Below are positions 26,862 through 34,094 of a DNA stretch of 64,000 nt, piece by piece. Within the stretch, counting starts at the first letter, position 1, and the number at the start of each line of letters is the position of its first letter. The translations under genes and the position numbers were made by a program. Origin of the DNA: Candidatus Limnocylindrales bacterium (GTDB taxonomy: Bacteria; Chloroflexota; Limnocylindria; Limnocylindrales; CSP1-4); NCBI GenBank assembly GCA_038250545.1, contig JBBSCF010000008.1:23519-87518 (forward strand), read 5' to 3'. Below the pieces are notes generated by a model, which did no database searches, was not told the origin of the DNA, and saw nothing but the letters and a program-made list of their open reading frames with translations.

Positions 26862-26892
26862 GGCACGTAAGCGGCCGGTGAGCGCGCGCTCG

Positions 26893-26898
26893 TATAAT
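26893..26898 (+). promoter_or_regulatory. Consensus -10 box TATAAT 6 nt upstream of the antitoxin ATG (leaderless mRNA)
   Basis: CGTATAATGGCTACATG. No room for an RBS. Confidence 0.6.
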
Positions 26899-26904
26899 GG
26901 CTAC

Positions 26905-27252
26905 ATGAGCGAGATGAAAAGCGCCACAACAAGGACCCGAGGAGCCGCGGCCCGGACCGAGGCTCCCGCCGGTGCCGCACGGTTGGTCGGGGTCCGCGAG
27001 TTGCGCGACCACCTGTCGGAGTATCTCCAGCAGGTACGAGCGGGAACGCCCTTGACCGTGACCGAGCATGGACGGCCGATCGCGACGATCGTGCCGCGGG
27101 GCTTCTCCTTGGAGCTGCTCGACCTCGCGGCGCGCGGGATCGTTACCCTGCCGGGCCTGCCGAAGGGGGACCCGTCGAGCTGGCCGCGTGTACCAGTCGA
27201 CGGCGGCACCGACGACCTCGTGGACTGGGCCAAGGGTGAACAGCTACCTTGA
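26905..27252 (+). CDS. Type II antitoxin, Phd/YefM (prevent-host-death) family
   Basis: VGVRELRDHLSEYLQQVRAGTPLTVTEHGRPIATIVP is the Phd/YefM core. Its 3' end overlaps the PIN gene by 17 nt. Confidence 0.8.
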   Translation: MSEMKSATTRTRGAAARTEAPAGAARLVGVRELRDHLSEYLQQVRAGTPLTVTEHGRPIATIVPRGFSLELLDLAARGIVTLPGLPKGDPSSWPRVPVDGGTDDLVDWAKGEQLP

Positions 27253-27661
27253 CACCTCGGCGCTCGTGAAGCTCGTCCTCGACGAGCCGGGCAGCGCCGT
27301 CGTCGAGCGACTCTGGCGGGCATCTGACCACGTGACCGCGTCATGCATCGGCCATGTCGAGCTCGGGGCGGCCGTCGCCGCCGCCTGCCGGGCCGGCGGC
27401 GTGCCGGCCATCGCCGCGGCCGTGGCCCGCCGGAGCGCCGACACGGTCTGGCAGCAGGTCGCCGCCGTGGACCTCGACCGCGAGACGCTCGCCGTGGCTG
27501 TCGAGCTCACGTCCAGGCGCGGCCTGAGCGCCGCCGACGCGATCCACCTGGCCGCAGCCCTGCGAGCACGAATCGGGGAGACGGTGTTCGTGAGCTTCGA
27601 CCGGCGGCTCCGCGAGGCCGCTGCGGCGGAGGGTTTCCGGGTGCTACCCGAGGTGGCCTGA
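27236..27661 (+). CDS. vapC: Type II toxin VapC (PIN-domain ribonuclease)
   Basis: GTG start. VNSYLDTSALVKLVLDEPGS, SAADAIHLAAAL and FVSFDRRL supply the PIN acidic residues. 141 aa. Confidence 0.85.
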   Translation: MNSYLDTSALVKLVLDEPGSAVVERLWRASDHVTASCIGHVELGAAVAAACRAGGVPAIAAAVARRSADTVWQQVAAVDLDRETLAVAVELTSRRGLSAADAIHLAAALRARIGETVFVSFDRRLREAAAAEGFRVLPEVA

Positions 27662-27662
27662 C

Positions 27663-28436
27663 GTGCCCGAGGGCGACACGCTCGTCCGGACCGCCGACGG
27701 CCTGCGTCCGTACCTGCTCGGGCGCACGGTGACCGCCGCGTCCGCGCGGGCGCCGGGCTCCCAGGCGGAGCGCCTCGTCGGGGCGACGGTCACGGCCGTC
27801 GAGGCGCGGGGCAAGAACCTGCTGATCCGGTTCGACACCGGGCTCGAGGTCCGGACGCACCTGCGGATGAACGGCTCGTGGCACCGCTACCGCCCCGGCG
27901 AGCGCTGGCGGCGGCCGGCTGCGCGGGCGCGGCTCGTGATCGAGGTGGAGGGCTCGGTCGCGGTCTGCTTCGACGCGCCGACCGTCGAGCTGTTCGAGCA
28001 GCGGGTCGAGGCGATCCACCCGTCGCTCTCGCGGCTCGGCCCGGACCTGCTGAAGGAGCCCGTGGACACCGCCGAGGCCGTGCGGCGACTCCGCGAGCCG
28101 GCGCGCGCCGTCGTGCCCATCGCGGTCGCCCTGCTGGACCAGCGGGCCATGGCCGGCATCGGCAATGAGGTCAAGAACGAGGTCCTGTGGCAGGCGCGTC
28201 GCTCCCCGTTCACGCCGGTTCGAGACCTGGACGACGCCGCGCTCCGCGATCTCGTTGACCTCGGCCGCGACGTCCTCCGCCAGGGTGCCTCGGCGGGCCG
28301 TCGCCCGCGCCATGTCTACCGGCGCGCCGCGCGCCCGTGCCCGCGTTGCGGGACGCCCATTCGCGTGGCGCACCAGGGCACGGACGTGCCGCGCCTCACG
28401 TTCTGGTGCCCCCGCTGCCAGCCCCCGTCCGCCTGA
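27663..28436 (+). CDS. nei: Endonuclease VIII (Nei/Fpg family DNA glycosylase/AP lyase), Nei2-like
   Basis: N-terminal (M)PEGDT, H2TH region GIGNEVKNEVLW, C-terminal zinc finger CPRCG...CPRCQ. The start lies 1 nt after the vapC stop. Confidence 0.9.
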   Translation: MPEGDTLVRTADGLRPYLLGRTVTAASARAPGSQAERLVGATVTAVEARGKNLLIRFDTGLEVRTHLRMNGSWHRYRPGERWRRPAARARLVIEVEGSVAVCFDAPTVELFEQRVEAIHPSLSRLGPDLLKEPVDTAEAVRRLREPARAVVPIAVALLDQRAMAGIGNEVKNEVLWQARRSPFTPVRDLDDAALRDLVDLGRDVLRQGASAGRRPRHVYRRAARPCPRCGTPIRVAHQGTDVPRLTFWCPRCQPPSA

Positions 28437-28500: not shown

Positions 28501-29901
28501 GTGACGCGTTCGACACGATCCCCGGGGGCCCGGTGGCTGCTGGTCCTCGTCCCCATCGCGGTGGTCGCCGTGCTGGAGGTCCTCTCGGACAGCGTGCTCG
28601 ACGAGGCCCTGCCGTTCCCTCGGGACACGCTCCTGGTGGTCGCCGCGACGGCCGCGTTCGGCCTGGTGTTCGGGGCGGTCGCCTTCTCCCGGATCGACGC
28701 GCTGACCGGCGCCCTGCGGGCCCGCAACGCCGAGCTGGAGTCGCGCGGCGCGAGCGCCCGGGCCCTCCACCGCGTCTCGCTCGCGATCGCGTCGCTGTCC
28801 GACGTGGAGCATGTGCTCGACGCGGTCGTGAAGCACGCCCGGGAGCTGCTCGGTGCGGATGTCGCGGTGCTGCTCCTCGAGGGGCCGGACGGCCGGCTCG
28901 AGCTGCGGGCCGTGGCGCCGGCGGACGCGCCGCGCCGCGTCCCGGTCCCGCCCCGGGCCGCGGAGCCCGGCGACCCGGCCGCGGCGATGCTCGCATTCGT
29001 GAACCCGTCGCTCGCGGTCGTCCGCCTGGCAGCGCCGCTGCAGCGGGGCAACGCCACGATCGGGCTGCTCGCGGTCGGCTGCTCCATGGCCCGAGGCTTC
29101 GACGCGGATGAGGTCGAGACCCTCGCGTCGCTCGCCAACCAGGCCACCATCGCGCTCGAGCATGCGCGGCTGGAGGCGCGTCTCCGCGAGCTGGCCGTGG
29201 TGGAGGAGCGCGAGCGGATCGCCCGCGAGCTCCACGATGGCATCGCCCAGGTGCTGGGCTACGTGAACACCAAGTCACAGGCGGTTGACGAGTACCTCGC
29301 GGCGGGGCGCGTCGACGAGGCCCGGGTCCAGGTGGCCGACCTCGGAGCCGCCGCACGCGCCGTCTACGTCGATGTGCGCGAGTCGATCCTGGGCCTGCGG
29401 AGCCCCATCGAGCCCGGGCAGGGCCTCGGATCGGCCGTGCTTGCCTACGCCGGCCGGGCTGCGGCCGCGTCCACGTTCGCCCTCGACGCGGACATCGAAC
29501 CAGACGTGTGCGACCTGCGCCTCGACCCCGATGCGGAGGCCCACGTGTACCGCGTCGTGCAGGAGGCCCTGACCAACGTCCGCAAGCACGCCGCGGCCCG
29601 GCGGGTCCGGGTCGCGATGCGGATCGAGGCGCTGGACCTCGTGCTCCGGGTCCAGGATGACGGCCGCGGCGTGGCCGCCGGGGACGCCCCGTCCGCGGTG
29701 CCGCACTACGGCCTGCGGGCGATGCGCGAGCGCGCGACGGCGATCGGCGGAACGCTCGACGTGGGTCCCGGGCTGGGCGGCCGCGGGACCGCCGTGGTCC
29801 TCCGGGTTCCGCTGGCGGCCCACGTGATCCCGGCGAACGTGATCCCGGCGCGCGTGGTCCCGGCAACCGAGCCGGCAGCGGTCGAGACGCGGGGCGCATG
29901 A
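28501..29901 (+). CDS. Sensor histidine kinase, 2 TM + GAF + HisKA_3 + HATPase (NarX/DesK class)
   Basis: GTG inside track ORF 28165..29901. TM segments WLLVLVPIAVVAVLEVL and LLVVAATAAFGLVFGAVAF. H-box ERERIARELHDGIAQ. N-box EALTNVRKHA. Confidence 0.88.
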   Translation: MTRSTRSPGARWLLVLVPIAVVAVLEVLSDSVLDEALPFPRDTLLVVAATAAFGLVFGAVAFSRIDALTGALRARNAELESRGASARALHRVSLAIASLSDVEHVLDAVVKHARELLGADVAVLLLEGPDGRLELRAVAPADAPRRVPVPPRAAEPGDPAAAMLAFVNPSLAVVRLAAPLQRGNATIGLLAVGCSMARGFDADEVETLASLANQATIALEHARLEARLRELAVVEERERIARELHDGIAQVLGYVNTKSQAVDEYLAAGRVDEARVQVADLGAAARAVYVDVRESILGLRSPIEPGQGLGSAVLAYAGRAAAASTFALDADIEPDVCDLRLDPDAEAHVYRVVQEALTNVRKHAAARRVRVAMRIEALDLVLRVQDDGRGVAAGDAPSAVPHYGLRAMRERATAIGGTLDVGPGLGGRGTAVVLRVPLAAHVIPANVIPARVVPATEPAAVETRGA

Positions 29902-30557
29902 TGCGGATCCTGCTCGCCGACGACCACGCGCTCTTCCGTGACGGGATCGCGTCCCTTCTCGCGGCCTGGGGCCACGAGGTGGTGGGACAGGCCGCCGACG
30001 GCACGCGTGCCATCACGCTGGCCGTTGAGCTGCACCCGGACCTCGTCCTGATGGACGTCGCGATGCCCGGCGGCGGGGGCCTCGAGGCGACGCGCCGGCT
30101 GGCCGCGCTCGAGCCGGGGATCGCGATCGTGATGCTCACGGCCAGCGAGGACGTCGACCACCTGTTCGCGGCGATCAAGGCCGGCGCGCGTGGCTACCTC
30201 CTCAAGAACCTCGAGAGCATCGAGCTTCGCTCGATGCTCGAAGCCGTGGCTCGCGGCGAGGCCGCGATCACACCCGCGATCGCGGGCCGGATCCTGGCCG
30301 AGCTCGCCCGCCCCGAGCCGCTGCCCGCCGGGGCCGGGCACGACCGCCCGGACCCCGATCGGCTGACCGACCGCGAGCTCGAGGTGCTGAGGCTGGTGGT
30401 CGTCGGACAGCGCAACAAGGAGATCGCGGCGGACCTCGGGATCAGCGAGAACACGGCCAAGTTCCACCTGCGCAACATCCTCGACAAGCTCCACGCCCAG
30501 AACCGCACCGAGGTGGTGGCCCGGGCGATGCGCGACGGGCTCATCGAGCGCGCCTGA
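29898..30557 (+). CDS. Response regulator, NarL/LuxR family
   Basis: Receiver ILLADDH...LVLMDVAMPG. LuxR HTH LTDRELEVLRLVVVGQRNKEIAADLGISENTAKFHLRNIL. 4-nt overlap with the kinase gene. Confidence 0.92.
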   Translation: MMRILLADDHALFRDGIASLLAAWGHEVVGQAADGTRAITLAVELHPDLVLMDVAMPGGGGLEATRRLAALEPGIAIVMLTASEDVDHLFAAIKAGARGYLLKNLESIELRSMLEAVARGEAAITPAIAGRILAELARPEPLPAGAGHDRPDPDRLTDRELEVLRLVVVGQRNKEIAADLGISENTAKFHLRNILDKLHAQNRTEVVARAMRDGLIERA

Positions 30558-30752
30558 CCCCTCGGGACCCGCTCTCGACCGGCTCGCAGACGGGCTCCGG
30601 CCGATTCGGCTGCCAGTGGAGTGCCGGCCATGTGGCCCGGGCTGCATGGCCCCCGGGTCCTACCCGAAATGACGGGCAGCCTACCCACCCGCACGAACGT
30701 GGTGCCGGCGATCCCGGCCGCCGATGCTGGCGATGCGAGAAGGAGGCGGCGT

Positions 30753-32774
30753 ATGGGCTATCGCATCGACATCGACCATGGAGGCTGCATCACCTGCGGC
30801 ATCTGCATGGATGTCTGTCCCGTCGAGGCGCTCGACATGACCCGGCCCGACCATCCCGGTCTCGAGACCGGGCCCGTCGGCGGCCGTCCGCTGCCGTGGA
30901 TGATGGAGAGCCCGCTGCAGGTGGGCGAGTGCATCGGCTGCGGCATCTGCGTGCGGGAGTGCCCGCCGGCGGTCATGACGGTCGTCGAGCTGCGGGGCGA
31001 GCAGATCCCGCTCGCGGCGCGCCAGGGTCCGGTGGATCGGCCGAGCGCCGTGGCCGCGGACGAGGCGTGGCTGCCGTGGTCCGAGGTGAGCCGCGAGTCC
31101 CTCAAGCGCACCAAGCCCGTCCCGTGGGGCTCCCTGTTCGCGTGGCGCACTCGGTCGCGGCCCAAGCCCTGGCAGGCCTGGACCACGATGGTCGACGTGG
31201 CTCCCGCCTCGCCGATCGCCCCCTGCCAGGAGGCCTGCCCGGCCGGCACGGACGCCGGCCGGTACGTCGGCCTGGTGGCCGCCGGCCGGTACGACGAGGC
31301 GTACGCGGTCGCCGCCGAGGTCAACCCGTTCCCGTCCGTCTGCGGCTGGATCTGCACGGCCCCGTGCGAGAGTGCCTGCCGCCGCGGCGTCCTCGATGAG
31401 CCGATCTCGATCCGCACGATCAAGCGCTTCGCCGCCGAGCGCGGCAAGCTGCCGCCCGTCCCCAAGACCGTCCAGACGCGCAGCGAGAAGGTCGCCATCG
31501 TCGGGGGCGGGCCCGCCGGCATGTCCGCGGCCTGGTATCTCGCCCGCCTGGGCTACCCGGTGACGGTCATGGAGGCCATGCCCATCCCGGGCGGCATGAT
31601 GGCCATCGGCATCCCCGAGTACCGCCTGCCCCGCGAGGTCCTCCAGGCCGAGCTGCAGCGCATCGTGGACGCGGGGGTGGAGCTCAGGCTCGACACCGTG
31701 ATGGGCCGTGACTTCACGCTGCCCGACCTCGAGCGCCAGGGCTACAAGGCCATCTTCCTGGCCACGGGCGCGTCCAAGTCCCGCCGCCTCGGCGTCCCGG
31801 GCGACGACCAGCGGGGCATGATCCCCGCCACCCGGTTCCTCAAGGAGGTCAACCTCGGGGAGAACCCGCGTCTCGCGGGCGACGTGATCGTCGTCGGCGG
31901 CGGCAGCACCGCGATGGACGCGGCGCGGTCGGCCAAGCGGAGCGGCGCGGGCTCGGTGAGCATCGTCTATCGGCGGGGCCGCGCCGACATGCCGGCCCAG
32001 GCCGAGGAGGTCGACGCCGCCGAGCGAGAGGGCATCGCCATCCGCGAGGGGCTCGCCCCTCGCGAGGTCGTCGGGCGGGACGGGGCGGTCGTCGCCCTCC
32101 GGTGCGACGTCACCAGGCCCGCCGACGCGCCGGCCGAGGACGGCCGCACGCCGTGGAACCCCACCGGCGAGACGCGCGAGCTCGCGGCCTCCTCGATCCT
32201 CGTCGCCATCGGCGAGGAGCCCGACCCGTCGATCCTCCCCGAGGGGGCCGGGATCGAGGTCAGCGGCTGGGCCGGCATCAAGGCCGATCCCGACACCCTG
32301 GCCACGGGACGCGCCGGCATCTTCGCCGGCGGCGACGTGGTCTCGGGTCCCAAGACCATCATCGAGGCCGTGGCCGCCGGACGGCGCGCCGCGGGCTCCA
32401 TCCACGAGCACCTCGCCGGGGTCCGCAATGGCGAGGCGGAGATCATGAAGGTCGTCCGCGTCAGGACCCCAGCCGAGTCGAAGCTCCAGCTCGATATCGC
32501 CGACCGGCCGCGCGTGCACGCACCCCTCCCGGTCGTCGAGACGGGCAACTTCAAGGCAACCCAGGTGGGCTTCGGCGAGCAGGCCGCGCGGACCGAGGCG
32601 TCCCGCTGCTTCCGCTGCGACGCCGTCTACGGGTGTCCGTCCGTCAGCGTCCTCGCCGGGCGCGGTCCCGCCGACAGCCGTGTCGGTGGCGGTGCCATCC
32701 CGGTCGCACCCGTGGCTCCGGCCATCACCCCATCAACCGCATCCGACTCCGCTGCACATGGAGGACCCCAGTGA
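30753..32774 (+). CDS. Fe-S flavoprotein: N-terminal 2x[4Fe-4S] ferredoxin domain fused to a GltD-family NAD(P)H-dependent oxidoreductase (AegA/YgfT-like architecture)
   Basis: AGGAGG RBS then ATG 30753. CITCGICMDVCP and CIGCGICVRECP. CQEACPAG...CGWICTAPCESACRRG. Dinucleotide folds VAIVGGGPAGMSAA and VIVVGGGSTAMDAA. C-terminal CFRCD...C. Confidence 0.88.
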   Translation: MGYRIDIDHGGCITCGICMDVCPVEALDMTRPDHPGLETGPVGGRPLPWMMESPLQVGECIGCGICVRECPPAVMTVVELRGEQIPLAARQGPVDRPSAVAADEAWLPWSEVSRESLKRTKPVPWGSLFAWRTRSRPKPWQAWTTMVDVAPASPIAPCQEACPAGTDAGRYVGLVAAGRYDEAYAVAAEVNPFPSVCGWICTAPCESACRRGVLDEPISIRTIKRFAAERGKLPPVPKTVQTRSEKVAIVGGGPAGMSAAWYLARLGYPVTVMEAMPIPGGMMAIGIPEYRLPREVLQAELQRIVDAGVELRLDTVMGRDFTLPDLERQGYKAIFLATGASKSRRLGVPGDDQRGMIPATRFLKEVNLGENPRLAGDVIVVGGGSTAMDAARSAKRSGAGSVSIVYRRGRADMPAQAEEVDAAEREGIAIREGLAPREVVGRDGAVVALRCDVTRPADAPAEDGRTPWNPTGETRELAASSILVAIGEEPDPSILPEGAGIEVSGWAGIKADPDTLATGRAGIFAGGDVVSGPKTIIEAVAAGRRAAGSIHEHLAGVRNGEAEIMKVVRVRTPAESKLQLDIADRPRVHAPLPVVETGNFKATQVGFGEQAARTEASRCFRCDAVYGCPSVSVLAGRGPADSRVGGGAIPVAPVAPAITPSTASDSAAHGGPQ

Positions 32775-33379
32775 ACGCCGACCAGGTCTCAGGTCTCTTC
32801 GGCGCCGGAGAGGCGTTTGTCGAGGGGACCATCGCAGCAGCGCTCGTGATCCTCTGGATCCTGGCGGTGGCGCTGCACCTCGCCCGGCCGTACATGGCGA
32901 GGACCACGGGCAAGTTCACCCTGCGGCTCGGTGCGGACCTGTGGTGGATCATCTACGTCGCCCTGCGCGACCTGATCCTCCTCCAGGTCTTCCTGGGCAG
33001 CTTCATTTTCTTCTACCCGGACGTCGTCACCGGCCAGAGCCTGCCGATCACCGGCGGTGTCGCCGCGGTGTTCGCCTTCGCCGCGTTGCTGATCAAGCTC
33101 ATGTCCAAGGGTGACGCGGACCTCCTGGGGATGCGGGTCCAGGTGATCCTCATCGGGATCGGCGCCGCGCTCTACCTGACGCCCTACCTGTTCGGCACCC
33201 AGACGACGATGCTCACCGGCGCCCACATCACCGGCATCTCCGAGTTCCTGGTCACCTCGACCAACCCGGGCCTGGCCCTGCCGCTGTGCTACCTGTCCGC
33301 CCTGGCGACGGGGATCCTGGGCCTGGTGGCCGTGGGCTACAACATCCGCCTGTCGATGCGCGCCCCCAAGGCCGCGTGA
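32771..33379 (+). CDS. Polytopic membrane protein of unknown family (paralog A)
   Basis: GTG overlaps the upstream stop (GTGA). About 5 TM segments. Shares the LH(L/F)ARPY, TLR(L/F)G(A/G)D(L/V)WW and RD motifs with the next gene. Confidence 0.75.
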   Translation: MNADQVSGLFGAGEAFVEGTIAAALVILWILAVALHLARPYMARTTGKFTLRLGADLWWIIYVALRDLILLQVFLGSFIFFYPDVVTGQSLPITGGVAAVFAFAALLIKLMSKGDADLLGMRVQVILIGIGAALYLTPYLFGTQTTMLTGAHITGISEFLVTSTNPGLALPLCYLSALATGILGLVAVGYNIRLSMRAPKAA

Positions 33380-33389
33380 GGAGAACCCG

Positions 33390-34016
33390 ATGCTGAGTGG
33401 AGACGATCTCGCCACCGCGATTGCCCAGGGCGGCTCCTCCTGGATGGTCCTGTCCGTCGCCGCGGTCCTGCCGATCATCTGGGCATTCACCCTGTCCCTG
33501 CACTTCGCCCGCCCCTACGTCCTGCGGTTCCTGCAGAACCTGACGCTCCGCTTCGGCGGGGACGTCTGGTGGCTGTCCTACGTGCTCACCCGCGACGCGC
33601 TGCTGGTGGTCACGCTCTGTCTGTCCGTGGTCTTCGTCTTCCCGAACGTCTACCTGCAGGGTGACGGCCTCGGGATCACGGCACCCATCGCCACCCTGGT
33701 GCTGTTCTGGGCGACGCTCGTCAAGCTGCTCCGGGACCCGGACGACAGCCCGTCCGACTTCCGCCTCATGAGCCTCCTGCTCGTCATCGCGTCCGTGCTC
33801 TACATCGTTCCCCAGGTGTACGGCATGGAGGCGGCGGACCAGGGGCTGGGCGACTGGTCCGCGGCCCTCATCTCGACCTCCAACCTGGCCCTGGCGCGAC
33901 CCATCCTGTGGGGCACGCTCCTGCTGTTCGGCGCCACCGGCGCCGCCGTCTTCGTGCGGTTCCTCGTGCAGCTCGGGAAGCCGGGCGACGGCGAGGTGTC
34001 GCTCGCCGAGGCCTGA
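33390..34016 (+). CDS. Polytopic membrane protein of unknown family (paralog B)
   Basis: Starts 10 nt after paralog A and is collinear with it over the full length. 208 aa. Confidence 0.8.
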   Translation: MLSGDDLATAIAQGGSSWMVLSVAAVLPIIWAFTLSLHFARPYVLRFLQNLTLRFGGDVWWLSYVLTRDALLVVTLCLSVVFVFPNVYLQGDGLGITAPIATLVLFWATLVKLLRDPDDSPSDFRLMSLLLVIASVLYIVPQVYGMEAADQGLGDWSAALISTSNLALARPILWGTLLLFGATGAAVFVRFLVQLGKPGDGEVSLAEA

Positions 34017-34022
34017 TCCCGC

Positions 34023-34094
34023 GGGCCGCCGGCGGCCCACCCAGCGTCCCGACCGGACCTCGACGCCCCCGTCCCAGGACGGGGGCGTCGAGGT
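34023..34094 (+). terminator. Two consecutive GC-rich hairpins (16-nt palindrome 34023-34038; 18-19-bp perfect inverted repeat 34056-34095)
   Basis: GGGCCGCCGGCGGCCC, then ACCTCGACGCCCCCGTCC-CA-GGACGGGGGCGTCGAGGT, directly after the stop of paralog B. There is no U-tract. Confidence 0.55.

Follow-up and report, generated by a model that had tools for sequence, protein, structure and literature searches.

What does a soluble iron-sulphur flavoprotein do when its gene is joined, almost without a gap, to the genes of two membrane proteins that belong to no characterised family? The question is raised by a locus of a Candidatus Limnocylindrales bacterium (assembly GCA_038250545.1, contig JBBSCF010000008.1), a soil or sediment Chloroflexota genome; the window, that is the whole stretch of 64,000 nucleotides (nt) analysed here, has a G+C content of ~73%. 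Five co-directional genes on the + strand, delimited by an open reading frame (ORF) listing, direct reading and a third-position G+C filter, encode a sensor histidine kinase, a response regulator, the Fe-S flavoprotein (FLV) and the membrane proteins A and B, in this order. In the following, FD denotes the N-terminal ferredoxin module of FLV, and M any membrane protein of the A/B family. A preliminary description of the locus had given the order kinase-regulator, a 195-nt gap, FLV-A-B and a double hairpin, and the coordinates confirm all of these elements and their junctions. The regulator ATG at 29898 overlaps the kinase stop at 29901 by 4 nt (ATGA), 195 nt separate the regulator stop (30557) from the FLV ATG (30753), the GTG start of A at 32771 overlaps the FLV stop at 32774 (GTGA), and the ATG of B (33390) follows the stop of A (33379) after 10 nt.

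FLV, A and B are read here, with a confidence slightly better than even, as one membrane-bound oxidoreductase that most likely reduces quinone; the complex itself, the direction of electron flow, the acceptor, the binding of the regulator and the sensed signal are parts of this reading that we infer. The reading rests on co-occurrence and synteny, the FD+M core, the ancient paralogs, their topology, the confident model of B, the matches of the FLV core and the conserved promoter region. Translational coupling of FLV to A and of A to B, as indicated by the GTGA overlap and the 10-nt gap, also supports it. The features of this trio are as follows.

30753-32774, + strand: FLV, cytoplasmic Fe-S flavoprotein of 673 amino acids (aa) (Pfam, NCBIfam, PDB relatives)
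30753-31202, + strand: FD module of FLV, aa 1-150 (alignment with stand-alone FDs)
31218-31442, + strand: Fer4_20 region of FLV with two [4Fe-4S] sites of the GltD/NfnB/DPD type (Pfam, 1.6e-16; conserved Cys pattern)
31488-32381, + strand: FAD and NAD(P)H binding domains of FLV, Pyr_redox_2 (Pfam, 8.9e-37; GxGxxG motifs)
32604-32639, + strand: C-terminal motif RCxRCDxxYxCP of FLV, aa 618-629 (invariant across 16 FLV orthologs)
32771-33379, + strand: membrane protein A, 202 aa, five predicted transmembrane helices (TM), N-out/C-in (GTG start overlapping the FLV stop)
33390-34016, + strand: membrane protein B, 208 aa, five predicted TM, N-out/C-in, paralog of A (ATG start; AlphaFold2 model)

The FLV-A-B trio and its FD+M core

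FLV begins with two CxxCxxCxxxCP motifs (aa 12-23 and 60-71), and continues with a Fer4_20 domain (aa 156-230; 60.6 bits, cut-off 25.8) and a Pyr_redox_2 domain (aa 246-543; 127.5 bits, cut-off 26.1) in Pfam. Fer4_20 with two Cys patterns followed by Rossmann domains is the arrangement of the GltD/NfnB/DPD-type module. No signal peptide was found in FLV, and the protein is therefore placed in the cytoplasm. Among proteins of known structure, FLV residues 155-560 match NfnA 9n5u (1e-99), 9bov_A, StnC 8oh5_C, NfnB, GltD and DPD, with E-values of 1e-99 to 1e-54 for NfnA/StnC/NfnB/GltD and of 1e-99 to 1e-38 for the PDB relatives overall. In NCBIfam the best model is PRK12771, which scores 457.9 bits, under its cut-off of 516, and covers residues 155-629 only; NuoI gave a weak local match to residues 5-31. 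An alignment of 16 FLV orthologs shows conservation of all cluster Cys, the glycine motifs for FAD and NAD(P)H, a YRR motif located after the second Rossmann strand, and RCxRCDxxYxCP. The last motif comes after the flavin domains and weakly matches the second such segment of NfnA 9n5u; it may correspond to the first cluster-binding segment of a second, truncated Fer4_20 unit and possibly provides an extra cluster site. FD has a signature of its own, consisting of the insert LDMTRP...WMM.P.Q and the tail W.PLS.YT...PWG...W...WQ.W.

Relatives of B number 1552 in a collection of 5.8 billion proteins, all of them unnamed or "hypothetical" and one labelled Candidatus Limnocylindrales, and the family is regarded as narrow because it has only 190 representatives at 50% identity among 1.84 billion proteins. 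In GTDB species genomes, 468 stretches encode a relative, and the best 80 of the 468 all come from Limnocylindria metagenome-assembled genomes (MAGs) of Chloroflexota. For the phylum as a whole, an even sample of 301 Chloroflexota genomes was tallied, including five unpublished ones (G173, G272, G038, G227 and G145), none of which has the trio. A/B occur in 28 of them, nearly always as a tandem pair. A search with FLV residues 1-150 gave one strong match each in these 28 genomes and strong matches in no others; five further, weak matches (E about 1e-9) fall within a single other genus and belong to a different protein. Within this sample, the phyletic link between FD and A/B is therefore complete. 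All 20 loci studied across the phylum have FLV-A-B in this order, at 40-85% identity, as do about 78 of the 80 species loci of Limnocylindria, the remainder being cut by contig ends; in the 20 loci, the trio has no other conserved neighbour gene. Neighbourhood conservation had been proposed in the preliminary description as a check, and the three genes indeed prove strictly co-occurring and syntenic across Chloroflexota.

Some copies of the locus are broken. In the loci from MFD long-read MAGs (L042-L121), the kinase, FLV or A is often split over two or three frames, probably through homopolymer sequencing errors or assembly frameshifts, which would also be the source of false "fusion" proteins in databases. 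The FLV-A(-B) fusions P0159, P0235 and P0126 were rejected as Rosetta-stone evidence, since they contain out-of-frame stretches and are read here as frameshift or assembly artefacts. One genome, G265, holds three copies of the trio, and the copy on its contig 2 (L030, G265:C2) is frameshifted in FLV and B; the B gene of G233 (L036, G233:C1) is also split. These copies may be either decaying paralogs or assembly errors.

Which part of FLV belongs with A and B is indicated by loci with other architectures. In G110 (L027, G110:C3, about 121000-122700), a dicluster ferredoxin of 145 aa, equivalent to FLV 1-134, precedes A-B without the GltD-like part, and this reduced locus stands directly after rplI, dnaB and purA. 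A metagenome scan seeded with the most divergent A/B-family members yielded three architectures: an FD-GltD fusion followed by two M genes, as in the window; M-FD-M (seven loci); and a single longer M followed by FD (about twenty loci, with G+C contents of 32-70%). The FDs of all three are 32-40% identical and have the insert LDMTRP...WMM.P.Q and the tail W.PLS.YT...PWG...W...W.VW in common. Because FD is shared by all architectures, with or without GltD, the GltD/NfnB-like part is an add-on, by which NAD(P)H would be set as the donor in Chloroflexota. Thus, although the preliminary description was right that a flavoprotein gene is coupled to the membrane pair, the conserved partner of A/B is the FD module and not the GltD-type module, in which it had seen the partner. 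The FD+M module, as defined in this analysis, consists of a 5-TM protein with RPY...LRxGxDxWW...RD adjoining a 2x[4Fe-4S] FD with the LDMTRP/WMM insert and the W.PLS..T...PWG tail, and the window locus has all of these parts.

With regard to a possible archaeal origin, the surroundings of the single-M loci are mixed. A divergent HTH_10 regulator lies upstream of single-M + FD, and the neighbours comprise HTH_10 and V4R proteins and also a bacterial-type phosphoenolpyruvate carboxylase and DnaJ. In L124, L122, L127 and L128, an unnamed protein of ~170 aa, a small extra 4Fe-4S ferredoxin and a V4R-domain protein are conserved 3′ of FD.

In a maximum-likelihood tree, A groups with the M that stands first in the M-FD-M loci (support 99/97), B with the one that stands second (92/83), and the single-M proteins form a separate, deeply divergent clade (100/100). 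The A/B duplication is ancient, with both copies always retained, and for this reason A and B may be an obligate heterodimer; homodimers would be expected for the single-M forms. Two paralogs of such age, each conserved on its own and with invariant polar residues, would be superfluous in a pure tether. It is therefore unlikely, in our judgement, that A and B only hold FLV at the membrane as a tether or scaffold, or do something unrelated such as transport, and that the partner or substrate of FLV is an enzyme encoded elsewhere. Such a view can appeal to the lack of a nameable catalytic signature in A/B, to the usual role of GltD/NfnB-type modules, which is to feed a catalytic subunit, and to the conserved extra C-terminal Cys motif of FLV, which could serve another partner; however, no other gene is conserved beside the trio across classes, and it is FD+M alone that is conserved in the reduced forms.

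Membrane proteins A and B and the proposed electron acceptor

A and B are 31% identical over 172 aa (E 5e-28), and neither matches a Pfam or NCBIfam family. When 55 aligned members of the A/B family were compared with Pfam at E <= 1, only scattered chance matches appeared, such as SecD-TM1 (E 0.026), and a PDB profile search gave one chance match (E 1.3). The AlphaFold2 model of B is confident (predicted local distance difference test, pLDDT, 93.6; predicted template modelling score, pTM, 0.87), and has five long helices together with short connecting helices. For the pair, a pseudo-fusion was modelled from 26 loci with A and B in one frame, the single stop being read as Gly. This model (pLDDT 78.7, pTM 0.73), in which only the linker is disordered, is compatible with a defined A-B arrangement. 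Foldseek found no match at E <= 0.001 for the B model or the pseudo-fusion, structural alignment of both against 48,000 chains returned generic four-helix bundles only (best Z 9.5), and an ESM Atlas search returned only the unnamed Chloroflexota clusters of the family itself. Leads from the Atlas to DUF5692 and to COX1 fragments were weak (0.77-0.80) and were taken as noise. That the two proteins stand outside any characterised family, as first supposed, is thus borne out by the Pfam, NCBIfam, PDB and fold searches, none of which found a relative.

The orientation of A and B can be predicted from the 55 family members. Loop 1 (mean of 3.9 Lys + Arg) and the C-terminus are the places where positive charges accumulate; the acidic residues gather at the N-terminus and in loops 2 and 4. 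This charge bias, together with the signal peptides and extracytoplasmic domains found before TM1 in relatives, indicates that A and B are both N-out/C-in, so that the conserved motifs face the cytoplasm. The conserved residues cluster in cytoplasmic loop 1 and the inner half of TM2, and form the motifs (H)-x-x-R-P-Y and L-R-x-G-x-D-x-W-W, a Tyr, and an intramembrane R-D pair. In B numbering, D58 and R68 are invariant, and W31, R41-P42-Y43, L53-R54, G56, W61, Y64, D69, P85 and K112-L113 are near-invariant. No Cys is conserved in the family.

A path for the electrons can be proposed on this basis. Cytoplasmic FLV would take a hydride from NAD(P)H at its FAD, the donor being NADPH by family analogy, and from FAD single electrons would then travel over the [4Fe-4S] pair of the GltD/NfnB type to reach the [4Fe-4S] pair of FD. 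With FD docked on the A/B heterodimer from the cytoplasmic side, the electrons would be handed to a membrane-resident acceptor, most likely (mena)quinone, as they are by SdhB on SdhCD, and by PsrB/NrfC on PsrC/NrfD.

Extracytoplasmic parts found in some relatives raise the question of whether the electrons go further, so that A/B would be a conduit from FD to an acceptor outside, such as a metal, a c-type cytochrome or a periplasmic reductase. P0158, P0175 and P0180 have a signal peptide and an immunoglobulin-like domain of ~110 aa before the M domain, P0161 has N-terminal extracytoplasmic repeats rich in His, Asp and Glu, and P0270 has an N-terminal CxxCH heme-c motif. P0270-type proteins are few, however, forming a small cluster of 8, and apparently truncated, and A and B of the window have only ~16-20 outside residues ahead of TM1. 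Moreover, a crossing of 30 Å needs cofactors, whereas the TM helices have no conserved pairs of His, Met or Cys, and the one frequent His, which is replaced by Gln in many members, is found where TM1 ends on the cytoplasmic side. A conduit of this kind is thus quite improbable.

The invariant or near-invariant charged residues could instead speak for energy coupling. R68-D69, D58 and K112 are present in both paralogs, the R-D pair lying within TM2, and A/B might move H+ or Na+, either with oxidation of NAD(P)H or ferredoxin pumping ions by a logic like that of Rnf or Nqr, or with the membrane potential driving electrons uphill from quinol to NADP+ or ferredoxin. In keeping with this, the FLV core most resembles modules of the NfnB/StnC type, whose work involves low-potential ferredoxin chemistry, and the FD+M core occurs without the NAD(P)H module, so that ferredoxin-level electrons would be the common currency. 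RnfA/E, NqrD/E, the antiporter-like subunits of complex I and PntB, however, resemble A/B only in generic helices (Foldseek E at least 0.07, TM-scores at most 0.35), and A and B have the same topology, not an inverted one as in RnfA/E, and no conserved Cys for an intramembrane cluster. Ion movement by A/B is accordingly given only a minor chance, and delivery of electrons to quinone is the reading kept in the following.

The putative upstream control region and the surroundings of the locus

The genes and sequence blocks that flank the trio are listed below.

28501-29901, + strand: sensor histidine kinase (GTG start at 28501; Pfam)
29898-30557, + strand: NarL/LuxR-type response regulator with REC and GerE helix-turn-helix domains (Pfam)
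30634-30657, + strand: GC-rich hairpin-like block 3′ of the regulator gene, consensus GGCCCGGGCC..GGCCC (alignment of 67 Limnocylindria intergenic regions)
30659-30679, + strand: operator-like inverted repeat, family consensus CCYACCCG-AT-CGGGTRGG (alignment of 67 species)
30680-30704, + strand: second conserved imperfect repeat, consensus CCCGCCCGG.CGGGCGTGG (alignment of upstream regions)
30721-30730, + strand: conserved CCGATGCT(C/G)G box, candidate -10-like promoter element (column identity 0.7-0.9 in most of the 67 upstream regions)
30740-30746, + strand: ribosome-binding site AAGGAGG, 6 nt 5′ of the FLV ATG (sequence reading)
34023-34093, + strand: two GC-rich hairpins 3′ of B, at 34023-34038 and 34058-34093 (RNA fold)

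The kinase has two hydrophobic TM helices with a very short outside loop at its N-terminus, and then a cytoplasmic GAF domain (GAF_2, residues 213-332 of the long ORF), HisKA_3 and HATPase_c (Pfam); its homologs begin to align at about residue 11 counted from the GTG start. Its PDB sequence matches are limited to the DesK/VraS/DevS-type kinase core, those to the heme-GAF redox/hypoxia sensors DevS/DosT being confined to the ATPase domain (residues 343-439), and a PDB sequence search with the GAF domain gave no solved relative. The regulator matches Response_reg (2.6e-26) and GerE (5.3e-20) in Pfam, and the NarL model of NCBIfam at 1.3e-43, yet under the cut-off of that model. A kinase with HisKA_3 and HATPase_c adjoining a regulator with REC and GerE is the hallmark of a NarL-family two-component system. 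The named systems NarX/Q/L, MctSR and MadSR were ruled out, because all of their NCBIfam equivalog models stayed under the cut-offs.

Dedicated two-component control of the trio had been suggested in the preliminary description, and a matching gene linkage is seen in Limnocylindria, where the kinase and regulator genes stand directly upstream of FLV in almost all of the 80 species loci that have enough upstream sequence, but the linkage is limited to this class. It is found in L022-L025 among the 20 loci across the phylum, and no kinase or regulator was found in the 1.9 kb upstream of the trio in the same-genus genome G079. In some loci outside Limnocylindria, the place of the two genes is taken by tandem-domain universal stress proteins, as at L033:5061-6059(-) and L035:5230-6219(-), and at L040:4578-6651(+) by a DoxX-domain membrane protein. 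These genes hint at a stress or hypoxia context.

The intergenic regions between regulator and FLV from 67 Limnocylindria species were aligned, and contain the same blocks in the same order: the GC hairpin, the inverted repeat, the second imperfect repeat, the CCGATGCT(C/G)G box and the ribosome-binding site. The GC-rich block possibly marks the end of the kinase/regulator transcript. The inverted repeat sits ~90-98 nt before the FLV start codon, and we take its TACCC core to recall NarL-type heptamers; the regulator may bind this conserved palindrome. A sigma-70 consensus scan of the region upstream of FLV found nothing. In Limnocylindria, the GAF kinase, anchored in the membrane, and the NarL-type regulator would accordingly serve as the operon's own switch, working through a palindrome-bearing promoter.

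On the 3′ side of B, the stem of the hairpin at 34058-34093 is perfect over 16-17 bp, and a fold energy of -67.7 kcal/mol was computed for the region (z = -4.6 compared with shuffles). A simple terminator scan called no terminator 3′ of B, since there is no T-run, and the hairpins probably form a factor-independent transcript end without a U-tract. Farther out, the locus is flanked upstream (26862-28436) by an lhr helicase gene, a PIN-domain toxin gene and a nei/fpg-type glycosylase gene, whose stop lies 64 nt before the kinase start, and downstream by GT87, GNAT and cyanophycin genes. From the nature of these neighbours, the module is judged to be self-contained.

Weight of the evidence and comparison with known systems

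Several observations count against a quinone-reducing complex under the control described. First, no structural or sequence similarity of A/B to quinone-binding anchors was found in Pfam, PDB profile, Foldseek and structural alignment searches. Second, the frequent His before RPY is Gln in many A/B relatives, and for this reason a heme-containing anchor is unlikely and a quinone site is not demonstrable. Third, the A-B pseudo-fusion is built on a shallow alignment of 26 sequences, and its interface is that of a model only. Fourth, the inverted repeat in the window (30659-30679) has an intact left half and a degenerate right half, and the palindrome is not enriched genome-wide, with 12 and 12 matches as against 11 and 12 in the control, so that a regulon cannot be inferred. 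Fifth, no heme-copper oxidase was found in six carriers of the trio (G151, G169, G205, G237, G005 and G018); with carriers both with and without this oxidase, the trio is not tied to one respiratory mode. A link to aerobic respiration was dropped, as the oxidase occurs in 22 of the 28 carriers and in 243 of the 301 genomes overall, and thus does not discriminate. Finally, no RNA run is among the sequencing runs listed for the locus; the DNA runs that match it are from sediment, which is probably the source sample, and to a small extent from peat and soil.

No paper describing the FLV-A-B trio or the FD+M module was found in the literature; an "NfnB-like" match concerned HdrA-NfnB fusions in ANME-1, which are unrelated. 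The module is an undescribed variant of a membrane-anchored Fe-S oxidoreductase with an anchor family unrelated to known ones. A wider proposal can be made only tentatively: FD+M may be an ancient, unrecognised minimal membrane redox machine, a ferredoxin-level:quinone oxidoreductase of several bacterial lineages, possibly ion-coupled, onto which an NADPH-FAD module was fused in Chloroflexota to give a further class of NAD(P)H dehydrogenase, structurally unrelated to complex I, NDH-2 and Nqr. Should the FLV-A-B complex function in the way proposed, it would represent a new family of membrane anchors and open another way into the membrane for electrons of NAD(P)H or ferredoxin. The hosts, Limnocylindria and other Chloroflexota of soil, sediment and freshwater, are abundant and almost wholly uncultured, with an energy metabolism reconstructed from annotation only; the genes are at present annotated as "hypothetical", so metabolic models of these hosts miss the module. 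The minimal FD+M form would suit a compact study of the handover of electrons from ferredoxin to the membrane, and the dedicated GAF kinase, its regulator and the conserved operator offer a handle on the inducing condition.

How, then, does the trio compare with known systems? The NfnB/NfnA, StnC, GltD and DPD modules (9n5u_A, 8oh5_C, 9bov_A, 4ylf_B and 5jca_L) have the NAD(P)H-FAD-2x[4Fe-4S] unit in common with FLV 155-560. Unlike these modules, FLV has an N-terminal 2x[4Fe-4S] FD of its own with a family-specific insert and tail, has the C-terminal RCxRCDxxYxCP, and is coupled to two membrane proteins. No FNR-like NfnA, GltB or PreA partner stands beside the trio among the window neighbours and in the 20 loci, no genome-wide partner search having been made. 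E. coli AegA/YgfT, which function in formate-dependent uric acid utilisation, share the layout of FLV, with ferredoxin-type clusters N-terminal to a GltD-like module. The preliminary description had noted this likeness, which is one of layout and not of orthology: the NCBIfam models of AegA and YgfT align only to FLV 156-555, and far under their cut-offs (195.5 against 1003, and 176.9 against 1154), and the N-terminal parts are not homologous to that of FLV at this sensitivity. To our knowledge, AegA/YgfT have not been described with such membrane partners.

Among membrane complexes, RnfA/RnfE and NqrD/NqrE are likewise pairs of paralogous polytopic proteins of ~200 aa in a ferredoxin- or NADH-linked complex, but A and B have the same topology instead of the opposite topologies of RnfA/E, and have no conserved Cys for an intramembrane cluster. 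In Pfam, none of the 55 A/B-family members meaningfully matches RnfA/E-NqrD/E (PF02508) or NrfD/PsrC (PF03916). SdhC/SdhD and FrdC/FrdD offer a functional analogy only: two small tandem paralogous membrane subunits dock a cytoplasmic Fe-S subunit, with a quinone site near the last cluster. They have three TM as against five in each of A and B, and A/B, unlike SdhC/SdhD, have no conserved bis-His pair for heme b; the PDB profile search gave no sequence match of A/B to SdhC/SdhD, and the fold searches gave generic bundles at Z of at most 9.5. In NrfD/PsrC with NrfC/PsrB, the Fe-S protein has four clusters, whereas FD here has two and is cytoplasmic without a twin-arginine translocation (Tat) signal. 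These systems, and also NuoI on NuoH, have the same general design as the one proposed for FD on A/B, namely a ferredoxin-fold Fe-S protein seated on a heme-less membrane partner that reacts with quinone.

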